A stretch of 32,009 nucleotides of DNA from Terriglobales bacterium (lineage in GTDB: Bacteria; Zixibacteria; MSB-5A5; RBG-16-43-9), in the NCBI GenBank assembly GCA_035543035.1, contig DATKKH010000173.1, forward strand, positions 1 to 32,009, written 5' to 3'. Of the stretch, positions 41 to 23,535 are shown in pieces (the first letter of the stretch is position 1; each line of letters starts with the position of its first letter). A model generated the notes under the pieces. The model was not told the origin of the DNA. It made no database searches and saw nothing but the letters and a program-made list of their open reading frames with translations. The translations under genes and the position numbers were made by a program.

Positions 41-70
41 TGTAGGGGCGTATGGCAATACGCCCTTACA
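41..70. repeat. GTAG-headed REP-like palindrome (class GGGGCGTATTG)
   Basis: tgtaggggcgtatggcaatacgcccttaca forms a 13-bp stem with one mismatch and a 4-nt loop. It is 27/30 identical to the copy at 8975-9004. Confidence 0.8.
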
Positions 71-2793: not shown

Positions 2794-3798
2794 ATGCTCA
2801 GCCTACTTTTTGTCATTTTCATCATTTTAGTTGCCCTGGCTTTTGATTTCACCAACGGATTGCACGATGCGGCTAACTCCATCGCCACTGTAGTATCCAC
2901 CAGGGTTTTAACACCCAGACAAGCAGTGGTCTGGGCCGCTTTTTTCAATTTCGTAGCCTTTCTGATCTTTGGCACTGCGGTGGCAACCACTATCGGCAAG
3001 GGAATGATCAACATCAGCGTGGTCACGCCCCGCCTAATATTTGCCGGGCTGATCGGTGCCATCAGCTGGAACCTTTTCACCTGGTATCTGGGACTGCCCA
3101 CCAGCTCCTCCCATGCCTTGATCGGTGGTTATGCAGGAGCAGCTATAGTAAAAGCCGGCTTTAAAGTCCTCATCCTCAGCGGCTGGACCAAGACCCTCAT
3201 CTTTCTTGTTCTGGCGCCTACCATAGGTCTGATCTTAGGGTTATTTTTCATCGTTATCGTCACCTGGATAGTCCGAAAAAAAACTCCCGCAAATATAGAC
3301 AAATGGTCCCGTCGATTGCAACTATTCTCTGCTTGTCTATACAGTCTTGGGCATGGAGGTAATGATGCACAAAAGACGATGGGAATTATAACCAGCCTGA
3401 TCTTTTCCGTGGGAATTATCAAGACTTTTCACGTGCCTATCTGGGTGGTGCTGAGCGCACATGCTGCCATAGCTTTAGGAACTCTATCCGGTGGCTGGCG
3501 GATAGTCAAAACCATGGGACAGAAAATCACCAAACTCAGGCCAATAGATGGTTGTTGTGCTGAAACTGCGAGTGCCATAAGCATTTTCACAGCTACTCAT
3601 CTGGGTGTTCCGGTCAGCACCACCCACGTAATCACCGGAGCGATTTCCGGCGTAGGAGCAGCCAAGAGGCTGTCTGCGGTTCGCTGGGGAGTTACTATCA
3701 AAATCGTCTGGGCCTGGTTTTTGACCATTCCCGGAGCAGCTTTGACTGCTGGAGTTTTCTATTTTCTGCTGGAGTCAGCTATTAAGTTATTCTCTTAG
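2794..3798 (+). CDS. pitA: Inorganic phosphate transporter, PiT family
   Basis: 334 aa. It carries the PiT signature FDFTNGLHDAANSIATVVSTR near the N-terminus and a second GGNDAQKTMGII repeat. The protein is polytopic. Confidence 0.93.
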   Translation: MLSLLFVIFIILVALAFDFTNGLHDAANSIATVVSTRVLTPRQAVVWAAFFNFVAFLIFGTAVATTIGKGMINISVVTPRLIFAGLIGAISWNLFTWYLGLPTSSSHALIGGYAGAAIVKAGFKVLILSGWTKTLIFLVLAPTIGLILGLFFIVIVTWIVRKKTPANIDKWSRRLQLFSACLYSLGHGGNDAQKTMGIITSLIFSVGIIKTFHVPIWVVLSAHAAIALGTLSGGWRIVKTMGQKITKLRPIDGCCAETASAISIFTATHLGVPVSTTHVITGAISGVGAAKRLSAVRWGVTIKIVWAWFLTIPGAALTAGVFYFLLESAIKLFS

Positions 3799-3899
3799 TA
3801 GGCAAGGGTCCAAACTATAAATAAGTAAACTGCTTCTGTCACTTGTCATGGTCCTAAAAGTAAAAAAGACTGTTTAAAATTGCTGAGAATGAAAAAAAT

Positions 3900-8876: not shown

Positions 8877-9004
8877 GTAGGGATAGCCCTTGTGGCTGTC
8901 CGCCATTTCTTAATCAGTTTTCGGACAGGGACAAGCCCTGTCCCTACATAAAGCCGTTGTTTCATTTCTATTTGTGTAGGGGTGTATTGCAATACGCCCC
9001 TACA
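8877..9004. repeat. REP cluster: inverted pair (8877-8901 +, 8923-8947 -) plus palindromic REP (8975-9004)
   Basis: gtagggatagcccttgtggctgtcc matches the reverse complement gtagggacagggcttgtccctgtcc (same head and loop, compensatory stem). The third element is tgtaggggtgtattgcaatacgcccctaca. Confidence 0.85.
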
Positions 9005-12413: not shown

Positions 12414-12631
12414 CCAGGTTGGGGGTAACCTGGATCTACCTGTTCTATGTCATTGCGAGTTCCCGTATGGGGCGAATCAATCCGCTTATCGTGGACAGAT
12501 TGCTTCGTCGTCAAATGACCACCTCGCAATGACACCTATCTTCCACGTTGTGTCAGGAGCTACTCCTCTATGAGCCGTAAAGCTTTTATCGGCTGACACG
12601 ATGGTCGCCTGTCAGGTCTAGGACCTGACAG
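12414..12631. repeat. Composite structured spacer: hairpin, 12-bp terminal inverted repeat unit, multi-stem region, 23-nt palindrome
   Basis: A ccaggtt/aacctgg hairpin lies at 12414-12433. tgtcattgcgag (12448-12459) and ctcgcaatgaca (12523-12534) flank 63 bp. gtgtca/tgacac (12550-12599) encloses two small hairpins. ctgtcaggtc-tag-gacctgacag lies at 12609-12631. Confidence 0.7.
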
Positions 12632-13650: not shown

Positions 13651-13733
13651 GTAGGGACAGAACAGTGTTCTGTCCATCAATGGCGACCCCGAAAGGGTCG
13701 CACTACGAAAGGGCGAGGTAACCTCGCCCCTAC
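13651..13733. repeat. Three tandem GTAG-headed REP hairpins
   Basis: 13651-13675 (+) is gtagggacagaacagtgttctgtcc. 13683-13706 (-) is gtagtgcgaccctttcggggtcgc. 13711-13733 (-) is gtaggggcgaggttacctcgccc. Confidence 0.85.
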
Positions 13734-13739
13734 ATTCTA

Positions 13740-14630
13740 TCAATTATCTTTCTCTAATGCCAACTTTCTCCTCAAGTCATAAATGCAGTTTTCCGGATTG
13801 GTTATTCCCTGGAGGCAGAAAAGGTGGCGGTAGTTTCTTCTCCTCTTAGCATCCTCTTCGCTGATATCCAGCAAGATCCCTTTATCGCAGGCAAAACATT
13901 TTTCCGGCTGGACGTCGAACTCAGTCCCGGTCCTGCTGGCGACTAAGACCTCTCCCAAATTCCAGCCTGAAGAGCTTGAATACGCCTCCGCAGAATCATT
14001 CCGGTTAACTTCGATTTCCTTTGGACTGTAAAAGACGATTCTGCCGCGGTCGGTTTTCAGTTTTGCCCGGAAATCGATTTTGTCGCCAGGCAGAAGCTGG
14101 TAATCTCTGTGCATTCTCGCAGGAAGGTTCAGATAGAAATAGTCCTGGAAGAAAATCCTATCTATGTATCCTTCTCTGAAACTGAGCAAAAATCCCAGGA
14201 AGCTTATCTGCTCTTTTTTAAACAGGATATTTTTTCTGAAATGGGGCACTATCGAATTTACTACTCCGTCTACATCGACCATTTTCCCCTGAAGACCGGA
14301 CAGCCAGTGCTCATAATCCTCTAATTCCCTCTGGAAGATTTTGAATTCATCATCCGAGAGCAGAACCTCCGGCTGAAAATTCAGCTTCTCCTCGAAATAA
14401 TTTTTGCAGGAAAAGCAGCTCTTTCCCACATGTTTATATTTTTTCGGACACCCGCTCCCCTTGTTAAGCAGCTTGCATTTCCATTCGAAATAGATGCATC
14501 CTGCAGGGAAACACTTTTTCTCCTTGAGCACGTGGTGAACCGAGACGTTTTTTTCGAATCTGAAATGAGCTTTGTGCCCGCATCTGTAGACGTCTTCTCT
14601 CTTATGCTGGTTGATTAAGGTTTTCTGCAT
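13740..14630 (-). CDS. Cys-rich hypothetical protein (putative zinc-binding N- and C-terminal modules flanking a beta-rich core)
   Basis: 296-aa ORF with GGAG 8 nt before the ATG. There are 7 Cys in residues 17-75, including CFSC. A CFAC motif plus 2 more Cys sit near the C-terminus. I recognise no family. Confidence 0.75.
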   Translation of the reverse strand: MQKTLINQHKREDVYRCGHKAHFRFEKNVSVHHVLKEKKCFPAGCIYFEWKCKLLNKGSGCPKKYKHVGKSCFSCKNYFEEKLNFQPEVLLSDDEFKIFQRELEDYEHWLSGLQGKMVDVDGVVNSIVPHFRKNILFKKEQISFLGFLLSFREGYIDRIFFQDYFYLNLPARMHRDYQLLPGDKIDFRAKLKTDRGRIVFYSPKEIEVNRNDSAEAYSSSSGWNLGEVLVASRTGTEFDVQPEKCFACDKGILLDISEEDAKRRRNYRHLFCLQGITNPENCIYDLRRKLALEKDN

Positions 14631-14920: not shown

Positions 14921-15078
14921 ACGCATGCCATGCGTCTCTACGAACTTGATGGAAATAAAAAAATTGGAGGTAGGGGGCGCCCCTGCAGTTGGGCGGAATT
15001 GAACTCCGCCCCTACACGATTCTTATAGGAATTCATATTCCTAAAAGACCGAAGGACAGAACGATGTTCTGTCCCTAC
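14921..15078. repeat. Four GTAG-headed REP hairpins
   Basis: 14921-14941 (-) is gtagagacgcatggcatgcgt. 14970-14984 (+) is gtagggggcgcccct. 14991-15015 (-) is gtaggggcggagttcaattccgccc. 15054-15078 (-) is gtagggacagaacatcgttctgtcc, 23/25 identical to 13651-13675. Confidence 0.85.
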
Positions 15079-15092
15079 AAGATATTTTTATG

Positions 15093-15121
15093 TTGACAAT
15101 AAAAATCTTAGAGGATAATAT
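15093..15121 (+). promoter_or_regulatory. Candidate sigma-70 promoter TTGACA-17 nt-TAATAT
   Basis: TTGACA lies at 15093-15098 and TAATAT at 15116-15121. This overlaps the first two in-frame ATGs of the EBP ORF. It is a motif match in AT-rich DNA only. Confidence 0.3.
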
Positions 15122-16922
15122 GGAAAATATGAGGAGAAAAGAAGAATCCAAATTAGACAGTTTAGAGGAAAATCTCAAAAGCTTGACTAATTCAGGAAAC
15201 AAGGGTATCAAGCTTTTGTATCGCGGTTTGAATTCAGTCACTGGTGACCTTTCCGAGCTGCCCAATCTTGCCTCGCCCAAACTCTCCACTTCCTTCGAGA
15301 AAATCACCCAGGGTATAGATGAGCTGGAAAAGAAAATTTCATCCCTGGAAAATTCCTTGGAAGAAGGGCTGGCTAAAATCGGGCAGGAATATCAGAAGCT
15401 CAAAAAAGAATATGAGGAGAAGGAAGAGGAAAGAAGGATTTACCGGATTCTGTATGAGCTTTCCACCATAATCTATGCGGAAAGAGACATCAATCTGCTT
15501 CTGGAAGCGGTTCTGGATTCGGTCATAGACATTTTCTCTGCGGAAAAAGGATTTTTAGAAGTATATGACGAGAACAAAAATCTGAAATTAAGGCTGGCTA
15601 AGGATAAACAAAAGAAGGTTCTGGAGGAAACTGAAGAAGAGATTAAATCTGGAGTCATCGAGGACGTTCTCTCCACCGGTAACAATGTTTTAATTCAACA
15701 GTTGATCTACAAGGAAACAGAGGATAAGGAGGATTGGAGCAGGGGGACAAAATCTCTCCTCTGCATTCCTCTCAAGTCCAAAGAAAATGTATTAGGGGTG
15801 ATCTATTTAGAGGATAGCCGCGAAGGAGAATCGTTCTCCTCTGGTGACGTGGAGCTTTTGAATTCTTTAGCTGAAAGAGTATCCGTGGCGTTAGAAAATA
15901 ACCTTCTTTTTATGGAGCTGAAGGAGTCAGAGGAAAAATTACTTTCAGACTTAAGGGAAAAGTTCAAGTTCGACGAGATATTGGGGAACAGTCCGCAGAT
16001 GGTCGAAATTTTAAAAACCGTGGCAGATATCGCAGACACTGAAGCGACTGTTCTGATCGAGGGCGAAAGCGGGACCGGAAAGGAGCTTTTGGCCCGGGCG
16101 ATCCATTTCAATTCCAGCCGCTCCCGAAAGCCTTTTGTACCCATAAACTGCGCGGCAATTCCGGAAACCCTTCTGGAGTCCGAGCTTTTTGGATACGAGA
16201 AGGGAGCATTCACCGGTGCTACCCAGAAAAAATTAGGAAAATTCGAAGTCGCCAATGGAGGGACGATCTTTTTGGATGAAATCGGGGAGATGAGTCCGCT
16301 TCTTCAGGTCAAGATTTTACGCTTTCTGCAGTCGCATGAATTCGAGCCGCTGGGCTCCAATAAAGTCAAGAAGTCGGACGTGAGGATAATCGCTGCTACC
16401 AATAAAGACCTTTTGGCTCTGGTCAAAGAAAACAAATTTAGAGAAGACCTTTTCTACCGGATAAACGTGATAAATCTCAGACTTCCGCCTTTAAGAGAAA
16501 GAAAACTGGACATAGCACCTCTGGCAGAAAGTTTTTCCAGGAAATTTTCAAAGAAATCCGATAAGCAGATCAAAGGAATAGAGGTCGAAGCCTTAAATTT
16601 TCTCTCACGCTACAGATTCCCCGGAAATATCAGGGAACTGGAAAATATCATCGAGCGGGCAGTGATTCTGGCGAAAGGTGAATGGATTACCAGAGACGAT
16701 TTCCCAAAAAGCATTTTCGATGGATCGGGAAATGATTCGGAAATTAAAATCGCCCAGAATTATTCGGAGCTCAAATCTTTGAGAAATAAAGCAGTGGAAG
16801 AGGTCGAGAAAAAATTCCTGGAGAATCTCCTTCTGAGAAACAATAACAATGTCTCCCGAGCAGCTAAAGAAGCCGGTATGCACAGGGTGGAATTGCAGAG
16901 ACTCCTCAAAAAATATAAGTAA
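15120..16922 (+). CDS. Sigma-54-dependent transcriptional activator (coiled-coil N-terminus, GAF, AAA+, Fis-type HTH)
   Basis: It has Walker A GESGTGKE, the sigma-54 contact loop GAFTGA (EKGAFTGATQKK), Walker B FLDEIGEM, and a C-terminal HTH NVSRAAKEAGMHRVELQRLLKKY. The ORF opens at 15090. The ATG at 15120 has GAGGA 4 nt upstream. The ATG at 15129 is also possible. Confidence 0.93.
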   Translation: MENMRRKEESKLDSLEENLKSLTNSGNKGIKLLYRGLNSVTGDLSELPNLASPKLSTSFEKITQGIDELEKKISSLENSLEEGLAKIGQEYQKLKKEYEEKEEERRIYRILYELSTIIYAERDINLLLEAVLDSVIDIFSAEKGFLEVYDENKNLKLRLAKDKQKKVLEETEEEIKSGVIEDVLSTGNNVLIQQLIYKETEDKEDWSRGTKSLLCIPLKSKENVLGVIYLEDSREGESFSSGDVELLNSLAERVSVALENNLLFMELKESEEKLLSDLREKFKFDEILGNSPQMVEILKTVADIADTEATVLIEGESGTGKELLARAIHFNSSRSRKPFVPINCAAIPETLLESELFGYEKGAFTGATQKKLGKFEVANGGTIFLDEIGEMSPLLQVKILRFLQSHEFEPLGSNKVKKSDVRIIAATNKDLLALVKENKFREDLFYRINVINLRLPPLRERKLDIAPLAESFSRKFSKKSDKQIKGIEVEALNFLSRYRFPGNIRELENIIERAVILAKGEWITRDDFPKSIFDGSGNDSEIKIAQNYSELKSLRNKAVEEVEKKFLENLLLRNNNNVSRAAKEAGMHRVELQRLLKKYK

Positions 16923-17193
16923 TCTTTTCTTCGAAGCGGAAAGCTTCAGCTTTACTAAAAAAACCTTAAGGTCTGTCCCTCAGATTTCCTTTAAAAAGTC
17001 AAATATATTTTTTCTGCAACAGAATAGTTATTTTGCTACATCATTGTTGCATCTTATAAAATAGCATTTCCATAGTCTTTTTAACCTCAATGTGTTAAGA
17101 GAGTGTAACTGTATAGTTGCATAAAAATACGAACCAAGGAACATATAAATTTATAATCCATTGGATAGCAATCACTTAATTATAAGCAAAATC

Positions 17194-17209
17194 TGGCACA
17201 GCAGTTGCA
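17194..17209 (+). promoter_or_regulatory. Sigma-54 (-24/-12) promoter
   Basis: TGGCACagcagTTGCA has GG at 17195-17196 and GC at 17207-17208, exactly 12 bp apart. It differs from the TGGCACG-N4-TTGCW consensus at only one specified position. It lies about 270 bp downstream of the EBP stop and about 50 nt upstream of the ATG at 17268. Confidence 0.75.
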
Positions 17210-17267
17210 ATCTATTAATGTACAAGGTATTATAGTGAGCGACAAATTAAGCAAAACAGAAAAGGAG

Positions 17268-17630
17268 ATGTCTTTAAAAGAGCTTCAAGAACAGATACTT
17301 GAGGCGGCTCTGGAAGTCCATAAGAACATGGGGCTAGGGTTCCAGGAAACAGCCTATAGCCAGGCTTTAGCTTATGAGTTTGATCTCAGGAAGATTGAAT
17401 ATGAAAGGAAGAAGAATATCAAGCTTTCCTATAAAGGGAGCGTGGCTGGGGAATATGATCTAGAATTCGTGGTCAAGAATAGCATCATCGTAATGATAAA
17501 AGCTGGCGAGCCGGTGAGCGAATCGGACGAGACCAAAATGAAAAGTTTTTTGAAAACCACCAAGCTTCCCCTGGGAATGGTGATTAATTTCGGCAAGGAG
17601 AGTTTAGAGGTAAAAAACGTTCACAGATAA
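17268..17630 (+). CDS. GxxExxY protein (PD-(D/E)xK-like, PDDEXK_3 family)
   Basis: 120 aa. It has the exact signature G-F-Q-E-T-A-Y (GLGFQETAYSQAL), then the YDLEF...IVMIKA core and the C-terminal GMVINFGK block typical of the family. The track's TTG start at 17205 lies inside the sigma-54 promoter. M22 (17268) matches the family N-terminus. Confidence 0.85.
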   Translation: MSLKELQEQILEAALEVHKNMGLGFQETAYSQALAYEFDLRKIEYERKKNIKLSYKGSVAGEYDLEFVVKNSIIVMIKAGEPVSESDETKMKSFLKTTKLPLGMVINFGKESLEVKNVHR

Positions 17631-17633
17631 ATG

Positions 17634-17664
17634 GTTGGCGCAAATTTAGAAAATGCCAACTTTT
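17634..17664 (+). terminator. Weak hairpin plus TTTT after the GxxExxY gene (possible attenuator)
   Basis: The gttggc/gccaac stem is 6 bp with a 15-nt loop and is followed by tttt. It is too weak to be a confident terminator. Confidence 0.3.
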
Positions 17665-17696
17665 CACCCTATACCTAAAAGGAGGTGAAGCAGAGG

Positions 17697-17744
17697 ATGC
17701 CCGCAAAGAAGAAAGCAAAGGCTAAAGGGAAGAAGAAAAAATAA
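17697..17744 (+). CDS. Candidate 15-aa lysine-rich micropeptide MPAKKKAKAKGKKKK
   Basis: The ATG is preceded by AAAAGGAGGTGA (GGAGG at 17681-17685, 11-nt spacing). The stop is TAA, and a strong intrinsic terminator follows 27 nt downstream. It is too short for codon statistics. Confidence 0.35.
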   Translation: MPAKKKAKAKGKKKK

Positions 17745-17770
17745 GAGCCTTTAGGTTTTTTGCGCCCAAA

Positions 17771-17800
17771 GAGTCTCCCCAAAGGGGGGACTCTTTTTTT
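17771..17800 (+). terminator. Rho-independent terminator
   Basis: gagtctcccc-aaa-ggggggactc forms a 10-bp stem with one G-U pair. It is followed by ttttttt. Confidence 0.85.
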
Positions 17801-17837
17801 ATCAATAACCTATAGGTTGTCAGCGGCAGGGAAGTTC

Positions 17838-17926
17838 GTAGTGCGACTCTTTCAGGGTGCTTGAGATGTAGAGACGAATTGCATGCGTCTTTACTTAACA
17901 ACGTCGGGCACAGGTCCCGACTCTAC
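17838..17926. repeat. Three GTAG-headed REP hairpins
   Basis: 17838-17860 (+) is gtagtgcgactctttcagggtgc, a degenerate copy of the 13683-13706 class. 17868-17894 (+) is gtagagacgaattgcatgcgtctttac. 17903-17926 (-) is gtagagtcgggacctgtgcccgac. Confidence 0.8.
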
Positions 17927-20039: not shown

Positions 20040-20134
20040 GTAGGGCAAACCTTCAGGTTTGCGTTTCTTCTCGTTGAATTCAAAACCCGATGTCTGACCC
20101 TGCTTTTGTTCGCAAGCCTGAAGCCTTGCCCTTC
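20040..20134. repeat. BIME-like inverted pair of REP hairpins
   Basis: 20040-20063 (+) is gtagggcaaaccttcaggtttgcg. 20111-20134 (-) is gaagggcaaggcttcaggcttgcg. They are separated by 47 bp. Confidence 0.8.
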
Positions 20135-23483: not shown

Positions 23484-23535
23484 GTAGCGCGAGGCTGAAA
23501 GCCTCGCAATGTGACCCTAAAAGGGTCGCGCTACG
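23484..23535. repeat. Back-to-back REP pair sharing a GTAGCGCGA head
   Basis: The (+) element is gtagcgcgaggctgaaagcctcgc and the (-) element is gtagcgcgacccttttagggtc. The two heads are mutually complementary (cgtagcgc / gcgctacg). Confidence 0.85.

Follow-up and report, generated by a model that had tools for sequence, protein, structure and literature searches.

A sigma-54 module conserved across Zixibacteria likely controls a two-gene operon encoding a GxxExxY pseudo-nuclease and a polylysine peptide

The locus described here lies in a contig of 32,009 nucleotides (GenBank DATKKH010000173.1, assembly GCA_035543035.1; the whole stretch, positions 1 to 32,009, is called the window below), whose proteins have their best named relatives exclusively in Zixibacteria, a candidate phylum. 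In order along the forward strand, it comprises a gene for a sigma-54 enhancer-binding protein (EBP), two palindromes, a sigma-54 promoter of the -24/-12 type, a gene for a member of the GxxExxY family with a PDDEXK_3 fold, a very short lysine-rich gene and an intrinsic terminator. We consider it likely that these elements make up a complete sigma-54 module, conserved across Zixibacteria, in which a two-gene operon encodes a pseudo-nuclease and a polylysine peptide and provides for inducible binding of polyanions. Relatives of the locus were gathered both via the EBP and via the GxxExxY protein, and the final table holds the window and 33 loci. Several of these nearly duplicate one another and many come from metagenomes as fragments; the non-redundant promoters number 23, and lineages were assigned according to the names given in the source databases. 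A scan of a genome collection with the whole EBP returned mostly paralogues, picked up via their AAA+ motifs, and a single orthologue (locus L001), and exact-sequence look-ups of the EBP and of the GxxExxY protein from the window gave no match.

The EBP gene occupies positions 15090-16922 (+), ending where the initial annotation of this DNA had placed the end of a GAF-AAA+(GAFTGA)-HTH activator. According to Pfam and NCBIfam, its product is composed of an N-terminal helical region, a GAF domain (residues 132-270), an AAA+ domain (Sigma54_activat, PF00158, residues 297-463, E 3e-72) followed by AAA_lid_14, and a Fis-type helix-turn-helix (HTH) domain (HTH_8, residues 569-609). The GAFTGA motif is found at residue 372 and also in 12/12 relatives checked, and the recognition helix of the HTH domain reads MHRVELQRLLKKY. 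The orthologues exhibit 61-94% identity, and the named ones belong to Zixibacteria. Since the relatives are 600 aa long and a Shine-Dalgarno (SD) sequence GAGGA precedes position 15120, the true start of the gene is probably 15120 and not 15090. The same region contains a sigma-70-like match, TTGACA-17-TAATAT at 15093-15121 (10/12), from which transcription would begin near 15128, directly ahead of the ATG at 15129, yielding a leaderless mRNA.

The top NCBIfam match of the EBP is NifA, but the score against this equivalog model (TIGR01817) is 407.1 bits, below the cut-off of 528.85, hence the identification with NifA was rejected; nif genes are absent nearby in the window. Because the protein falls below every NCBIfam equivalog cut-off, we regard it as a generic GAF-type EBP. 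A PADLOC search matched it to the RtcR models solely over their generic AAA+/HTH region. One related locus, L117, encodes an EBP (positions 3-1184 of that locus) with a receiver domain of the response-regulator type in place of GAF, next to the same enhancer, promoter and cargo. As far as domain predictions go, this natural swap shows that the GAF sensor is not universal and that one input domain can replace another without a change of output.

The promoter had been proposed by eye, about 270 bp past the EBP gene, as the only site of its kind in the window. The match TGGCACagcagTTGC lies at 17194-17208, 272 bp past the EBP stop codon, with GG (17195-17196) and GC (17207-17208) 12 bp apart, and the full element, TGGCACagcagTTGCA, spans 17194-17209 (+). 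When both strands of the 32 kb are searched, this is the sole exact match to TGGCAC-N5-TTGC, with 0.01 expected from shuffled sequences; the runner-up has one mismatch, lacks TTGC and lies inside a long open reading frame (ORF, 2794-3798), and weaker matches are no more frequent in the window than expected by chance. The element recurs as TGGCAY-N5-TTGCW in all 33 sequences that include upstream DNA (the window and 32 loci), 72-100 nt ahead of the position that corresponds to the first residue of the GxxExxY protein; the remaining one of the 33 loci begins inside the GxxExxY gene and hence stays outside this count. In a site-anchored alignment of the 23 non-redundant promoters, which begins 12 nt ahead of the element and runs up to the start of the gene, strong conservation is limited to GGCA and TTGC, with approximately 1.8-2 bits each, as against roughly 1 bit or less in their flanks, and GG and GC are invariant. 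Transcription is predicted to start near 17220, about 12 nt past the GC element. A TTG codon at 17205, already suspected to be a wrong start for the downstream ORF, belongs to the -12 element, so that any start site used by sigma-54 would be further downstream.

Between the EBP gene and the promoter there are two 18-bp palindromes, which the initial annotation had not noted: TGCTACatcattGTTGCA at 17034-17051 and TGTAACtgtataGTTGCA at 17104-17121, located 70 bp apart and, respectively, 160 and 90 bp ahead of the promoter. With one mismatch allowed, the pattern TGYAAC-N6-GTTRCA has 2 hits in the 32-kb window, which are these two palindromes (0.10 expected), and in a set of 89 loci its exact matches are confined to three orthologous loci, at equivalent positions. 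The palindromes of related loci have conserved half-sites and a conserved position with a variable spacer; in most of the loci the pair is 67-71 bp apart, at lineage-specific fixed offsets from the promoter (90/160, 104/175, 114/184 or 117/184). Activator sites at sigma-54 promoters are usually located some 80-200 bp upstream, which fits the distances of 90 and 160 bp seen here, and the two palindromes are probably the enhancer used by the EBP. The half-site and the recognition helix also change together: the clade of the window and its near relatives combine the half-site TGyAAC with the helix MHRVELQR, and L114-L118, as deeper lineages, have TGCGAC-N6-GTCGCA in both palindromes together with MHRKQFQR(I/L/M) as the helix. 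Such a pattern would be expected if the EBP binds the palindromes. An extra, conserved sequence, TGCAAC (17015-17020, +), found upstream of the first palindrome, is a putative further half-site; TGC-AC is invariant in a 5-locus alignment, where L083 differs by having T at the fourth base (TGCTAC). In L101, where the module is away from the EBP gene, positions 3660-3830 contain several additional TGTAAC/GTTACA half-sites and palindromes upstream of the promoter, and one more, TGTAACaaatttATGACA, is found downstream of it.

The first gene behind the promoter (17268-17630, +) begins with the ATG that had been assigned to a GxxExxY protein, and lies between the EBP gene and a gene for a 5'-nucleotidase. 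Its 120-aa product matches, over its full length, the hidden Markov models (HMMs) PF13366 (101.9 bits, cut-off 22) and TIGR04256 (108 bits, cut-off 35), the eponymous motif being G24-F-Q-E27-T-A-Y30. The gene could also start at a GTG in the same frame (17235), but L083 does not keep this frame. A sequence search of the PDB gave no match for this protein. An AlphaFold2 model (pLDDT 94.9), submitted to Foldseek, has as its top PDB matches Cas4 SSO0001, LHK exonuclease, RecE and lambda exonuclease, which are PD-(D/E)XK enzymes.

Residue statistics indicate that the active site on this fold is degenerate. The window protein has E66...M76-I-K78 instead of D...E-x-K, and its relatives from Zixibacteria differ from the wider family in the same way. 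Among 110 single-domain members of the latter, D66 is found in 105, E76 in 95 (and D in 4 others), K78 in 105 and E27 in 103. In the Zixibacteria branch, on the other hand, position 76 is acidic in 0/120 sequences (M, A, V, L, I or S are found there), K78 is present in 72/120 and E27 in 69/120, and position 66 is E, D or Q, acidic in most; G22, G24, Y30, E37 and Y55 are invariant. An exhaustive search of the family yielded 6509 cluster representatives at E <= 0.001. Below E 1e-30, besides a stray fusion, there are just 2 representatives, and because there are no more than these 2, the sigma-54-linked GxxExxY proteins form a tight branch, the named members of which are all from Zixibacteria. 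As the acidic residue of (D/E)XK is missing in 120/120 relatives, the GxxExxY protein is probably non-catalytic rather than a nuclease; most simply, its nuclease fold would have been kept by strong selection for a role without catalysis, probably in binding.

The second gene is a polylysine micro-gene at 17697-17744 (+), which encodes MPAKKKAKAKGKKKK, a peptide of 15 aa with a net charge of +9. It coincides with a lysine-rich micro-ORF pointed out earlier, and its SD (AAGGAGGTGA, 17679-17688), start and N-terminus are conserved. In all loci with downstream DNA, GGAGGTGA occurs 2-10 nt before the start and is followed by an MPAKKK or MPMKKK opening, a lysine-rich run, a stop codon and a terminator; L101 has a GTG start in place of ATG. 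The product is 15-31 aa long in various loci and ranges from 15 to 116 aa overall. In L114 it has 49 aa, MPA(KKKTA)n KKKRKR, with a net charge of +30, in L115 69 aa and in L118 116 aa of the form (KKKAT)n, the gene in L118 consisting of 20.7 tandem copies of a 15-bp unit. Judged by these conserved signals, the 15-codon ORF is a real gene and not noise. The lysine-rich proteins remain below the threshold of all Pfam and NCBIfam families, and the 24- and 31-aa forms have no HMM match; these scans cover the longer relatives, the 15-aa peptide of the window being under the 20-residue minimum of the tool. Hc2 and a Burkholderia H1-like protein were matched below threshold, and these matches are taken as a resemblance in composition.

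A strong intrinsic terminator, also called from the first inspection, closes the operon at 17768-17802 (+). It consists of a 13-bp stem (17768-17796) with 7 G-C pairs and a T-run and has a free energy of -23.9 kcal/mol (z = -2.95), and equivalent hairpins are found 3' of the lysine-rich gene in relatives. Another RNA structure is possible between the two genes (17633-17690, +), where a hairpin GGTTGGC...GCCAACT (17633-17661) follows the GxxExxY stop codon and the adjoining UUUCACCCU (17662-17670) can pair with the SD of the lysine-rich ORF (17681-17690). The sequence is invariant in 6 loci of the window's clade, where the RNAalifold consensus keeps all pairs with zero covariation, and deeper lineages lack the structure. 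The amounts of the two products relative to each other may depend on it; since covariation is lacking and the structure occurs in a single clade, no function is claimed for it.

The EBP gene lies directly upstream of the module in 24/33 related loci (25 sequences with the window), its product being from 94% down to 45% identical to that of the window. Adjacency of the two genes in relatives had been named beforehand as a test that could refute the arrangement, and it is found to be conserved. The gene order EBP, GxxExxY, lysine-rich gene, (5'-nucleotidase), VanZ, HisRS, AspRS, PhoH, 7TM-HD is kept wholly or largely, for example in L082 (a 2.7 Mb contig), L083, L114 (CP070742.1, 3.7 Mb) and L118 (without HisRS). 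In L101, L102, L103 and L110 the EBP gene is absent within 1.5-4 kb upstream, and the promoter, the palindromes, both genes and the terminator are retained. Because the module persists away from the EBP gene in three or four such loci, we regard the cis-acting module as the conserved unit and the adjacency of the EBP gene as frequent but not obligatory. In every lineage, conservation is higher for the GxxExxY protein than for the EBP (e.g. 76% vs 62% in L001), and among 79 paralogous EBPs from other phyla none has a PDDEXK_3-like or polylysine gene as a neighbour. On this comparison, the unit is conserved across the Zixibacteria phylum.

The following mechanism can be proposed, in which the binding of the EBP, the start site and the gating by a signal are deduced from established sigma-54 biology. 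The EBP (GAF, AAA+ with GAFTGA, HTH) would bind the palindromes at 17034-17051 and 17104-17121 as an oligomer, and its sensor domain would restrain the AAA+ motor until a signal arrives. ATP hydrolysis by the EBP would then open the closed complex of the sigma-54 RNA polymerase at TGGCAC-N5-TTGCA (17194-17209), giving rise to a two-gene transcript of about 580 nt, which would start near 17220 and end at the terminator (17768-17802). The pseudo-nuclease may serve as a binding partner or adaptor that targets, loads or restrains a polycationic coat. By composition and by analogy with the lysine-rich, histone H1-like proteins Hc2 and AlgP, the pair is most likely an inducible system for coating a polyanion, be it DNA, RNA or polyphosphate. 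The initial annotation had inferred a GAF-gated expression module for a nuclease-fold protein; the analysis supports this reading and refines it, in that L117 has a sensor other than GAF, the cargo comprises a second gene, and the protein has lost the (D/E)XK acid together with all 120 relatives.

Several observations weigh against this interpretation. rpoN is not found in the window, and the RpoN box is absent from all fetched loci, to which the search was limited; a second sigma-54 EBP in L087 lends indirect support to the presence of rpoN. The EBPs of L084-L089 (64-66% identity) have other neighbours and lack the promoter match; their HTH helices are nearly identical to that of the window EBP, and their targets probably lie elsewhere in their genomes. 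Comparison of the net charge and isoelectric point of the subfamily with those of the wider family gives no useful signal and no hint of pairing with a polycation. Some PD-(D/E)XK enzymes relocate their catalytic residues, which makes residual activity of the GxxExxY protein possible. The 69-aa relative of the polylysine peptide matches the HC2 family (PF07382) with 14.6 bits (E 0.037), the cut-off being 40. Finally, a sigma-70-like site, TTGCAA-17-TATTAT (17205-17233, 9/12), overlaps the sigma-54 promoter.

A more specific proposal, which we offer tentatively and consider rather doubtful, is a protamine-like system triggered via sigma-54, in which the polylysine would coat and condense the nucleoid (or rRNA, or polyphosphate) and the dead PD-(D/E)XK protein would act as its loader, targeting factor or antagonist, in response to a metabolic or stress signal.

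It could alternatively be argued that the module induces an active nuclease, used in DNA or RNA degradation, defence or repair, and that the lysine-rich ORF is incidental. The family scores, far above the cut-offs of PF13366 and TIGR04256, the likeness of the fold to Cas4, RecE and lambda exonuclease, the invariant E37 and the acidic residue at position 66 in most members would all agree with this. However, the acid of (D/E)XK is missing in every member of the branch, the lysine is lost in 48/120 and the E27 of the motif in 51/120 while the rest of the protein is highly conserved, PADLOC assigns the GxxExxY protein to no defence family, and the lysine-rich gene is co-conserved everywhere, so we consider an active nuclease quite unlikely.

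It seems improbable, too, that the GxxExxY gene is a passenger that landed between the promoter and its real cargo, the polylysine gene, and was kept without a role in the module. The wider family is indeed large and patchy, as the 6509 cluster representatives attest, and multi-copy; a survey published in 2012 reported multiple transfers within it (PMC3424549), and the catalytic residues have decayed in the branch discussed here. Nonetheless, all 34 sequences, those of the 33 loci and of the window, contain the gene, at a preserved distance from the promoter, with 35-98% identity and with conservation above that of the EBP. Moreover, the decay is limited to active-site positions, with the five invariant residues G22, G24, Y30, E37 and Y55 spared, and a decay of the active site alone therefore suggests purifying selection for a new, non-catalytic role.

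A different argument concerns the lysine-rich gene, the purine-rich AAG/AAA tract of which might act as RNA, for instance by stalling ribosomes or by forming a 3' region of the (ARN)n kind to which proteins bind, the peptide not being the functional product. A/G-rich DNA rarely contains stop codons, which makes an open frame weak evidence for a gene, the length and sequence vary widely (15-116 codons), and a conserved structure can sequester the SD. We nevertheless consider this very unlikely, because a near-perfect SD and the MPAKKK/MPMKKK start are kept where the surrounding intergenic DNA cannot be aligned, GTG substitutes for the start codon in L101, and the repeats grow in units of 15 bp, i.e. 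by whole pentapeptides.

That the -24/-12 match is unused and transcription is driven by the overlapping sigma-70-like site or by read-through from the EBP gene, behind which a scan shows no clear terminator, is extremely improbable, as conservation of the TATTAT hexamer is restricted to the window's clade, in contrast to the GG and GC invariant in the 23 non-redundant loci, and L101 and L110 keep the promoter and palindromes without an upstream EBP gene, which excludes read-through there; sigma-70 as the main driver and read-through as a general mechanism were thus both rejected.

Several further features were noted in the window and in related loci. In the window, CTAC follows within 0-2 nt after each of 12 perfect hairpins rich in G+C (stem 6-9, loop 3-7), compared with an average of 0.6 in shuffled sequences, at 42-65(-), 8923-8947, 12414-12439, 13651-13675(-), 13683-13706, 13711-13733, 14921-14941, 14991-15015, 15054-15078, 17903-17926, 20040-20062(-) and 23484-23507(-). 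They resemble elements of the REP (repetitive extragenic palindromic) type, with GTAG and a palindrome on the opposite strand, they flank the EBP/GxxExxY unit, and at least most of them lie between long ORFs. L081 and L082 have hairpin-forming insertions between the EBP stop codon and the enhancer, some of them similar to the CTAC hairpins, and these insertions may explain the variable spacing. Upstream of the EBP gene and divergent from it, 13740-14630 (-) encodes a cysteine-rich protein of 296 aa, for which Pfam, NCBIfam and PADLOC gave no match. By size and position, an ORF in the equivalent place in L081, L082 and L083 (295, 295 and 248 aa, with no Pfam match) is a candidate counterpart. 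A toxin-antitoxin pair of the HEPN/nucleotidyltransferase (MNT/HepT) type is encoded in L083 (12216-12928), about 4.4 kb past the EBP gene in a locus that has the module, and another in L084 (8163-8962), directly after a DUF2283 gene and a few kb past the EBP gene in a locus that lacks it.

GxxExxY/PDDEXK_3 proteins form a large family without an assigned function, on which full-text searches yielded almost nothing. The locus provides the first regulatory handle for this family, namely an EBP of its own, a sigma-54 promoter and a probable enhancer of defined sequence, and supplies an obligate partner gene, that of the polylysine peptide. It also indicates that at least one conserved GxxExxY branch works without a nuclease active site. 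From an uncultured phylum comes a fully specified cis-regulatory system, with an activator, two probable operators, a promoter and co-varying natural variants, which can be rebuilt in a heterologous host. The polylysine gene itself is very small and variable in length, and its short forms are missed by standard annotation. Should the protamine-like reading be true, the first role of the GxxExxY family would be that of a nucleic acid-binding pseudo-enzyme partnered with a polycation. The literature on GxxExxY, PDDEXK_3 and sigma-54 or rpoN in Zixibacteria gave no relevant description of the arrangement, in keeping with the earlier impression that it is undescribed. While the design of the regulation is classical, its cargo, and the coupling of the two throughout the phylum, are new as far as the searched literature shows.

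Among known systems, those of the NifA type share with the module the domain order of the activator (GAF, AAA+ with GAFTGA, Fis-type HTH) and palindromes approximately 90-160 bp from a TGGCAC-N5-TTGC element. The upstream sites of NifA are TGT-N10-ACA, whereas the sites of the module, TGyAAC-N6-GTTrCA, correspond to TGT-N12-ACA; besides, nif genes are absent, and the cargo is a pseudo-nuclease with a polylysine peptide. RtcR, together with the rtcBA operon, is an example of a sigma-54 EBP that gates nucleic acid repair enzymes. In both cases the EBP is encoded beside a sigma-54 promoter and the cargo has folds that act on nucleic acids, and the AAA+/HTH part of the EBP matches the RtcR models of PADLOC and NCBIfam. 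This match is generic and below the cut-off, however, the sensor of RtcR is a CARF domain where the module has GAF (or a receiver in L117), and the cargo of the module is predicted to be non-catalytic.

As to the polylysine peptide, Hc2 (HctB) of Chlamydia is a DNA-binding protein in which the number of lysine-rich pentamers varies (PMC2848022), and the H1-like AlgP of Pseudomonas spaces polyphosphate granules (PMC9239181). Lysine-rich pentapeptide repeats, with a copy number that varies between strains or lineages, are common to these proteins and those of the module; the latter are much shorter (15-116 aa), have no significant sequence match to them, and differ in regulation and partner gene. 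With the rest of the GxxExxY family, the pseudo-nuclease shares the full-length HMM match, the GxxExxY motif and the predicted PD-(D/E)XK core fold. The initial annotation had named intervening sequences of 23S rRNA as a setting of GxxExxY genes; Rfam found neither rRNA nor any other RNA family in the 32-kb window. The branch found in the module differs from the remainder of the family in that the (D/E)XK acid is missing, the genes are in synteny instead of being scattered, control by sigma-54 is predicted, and a polylysine gene always comes next.

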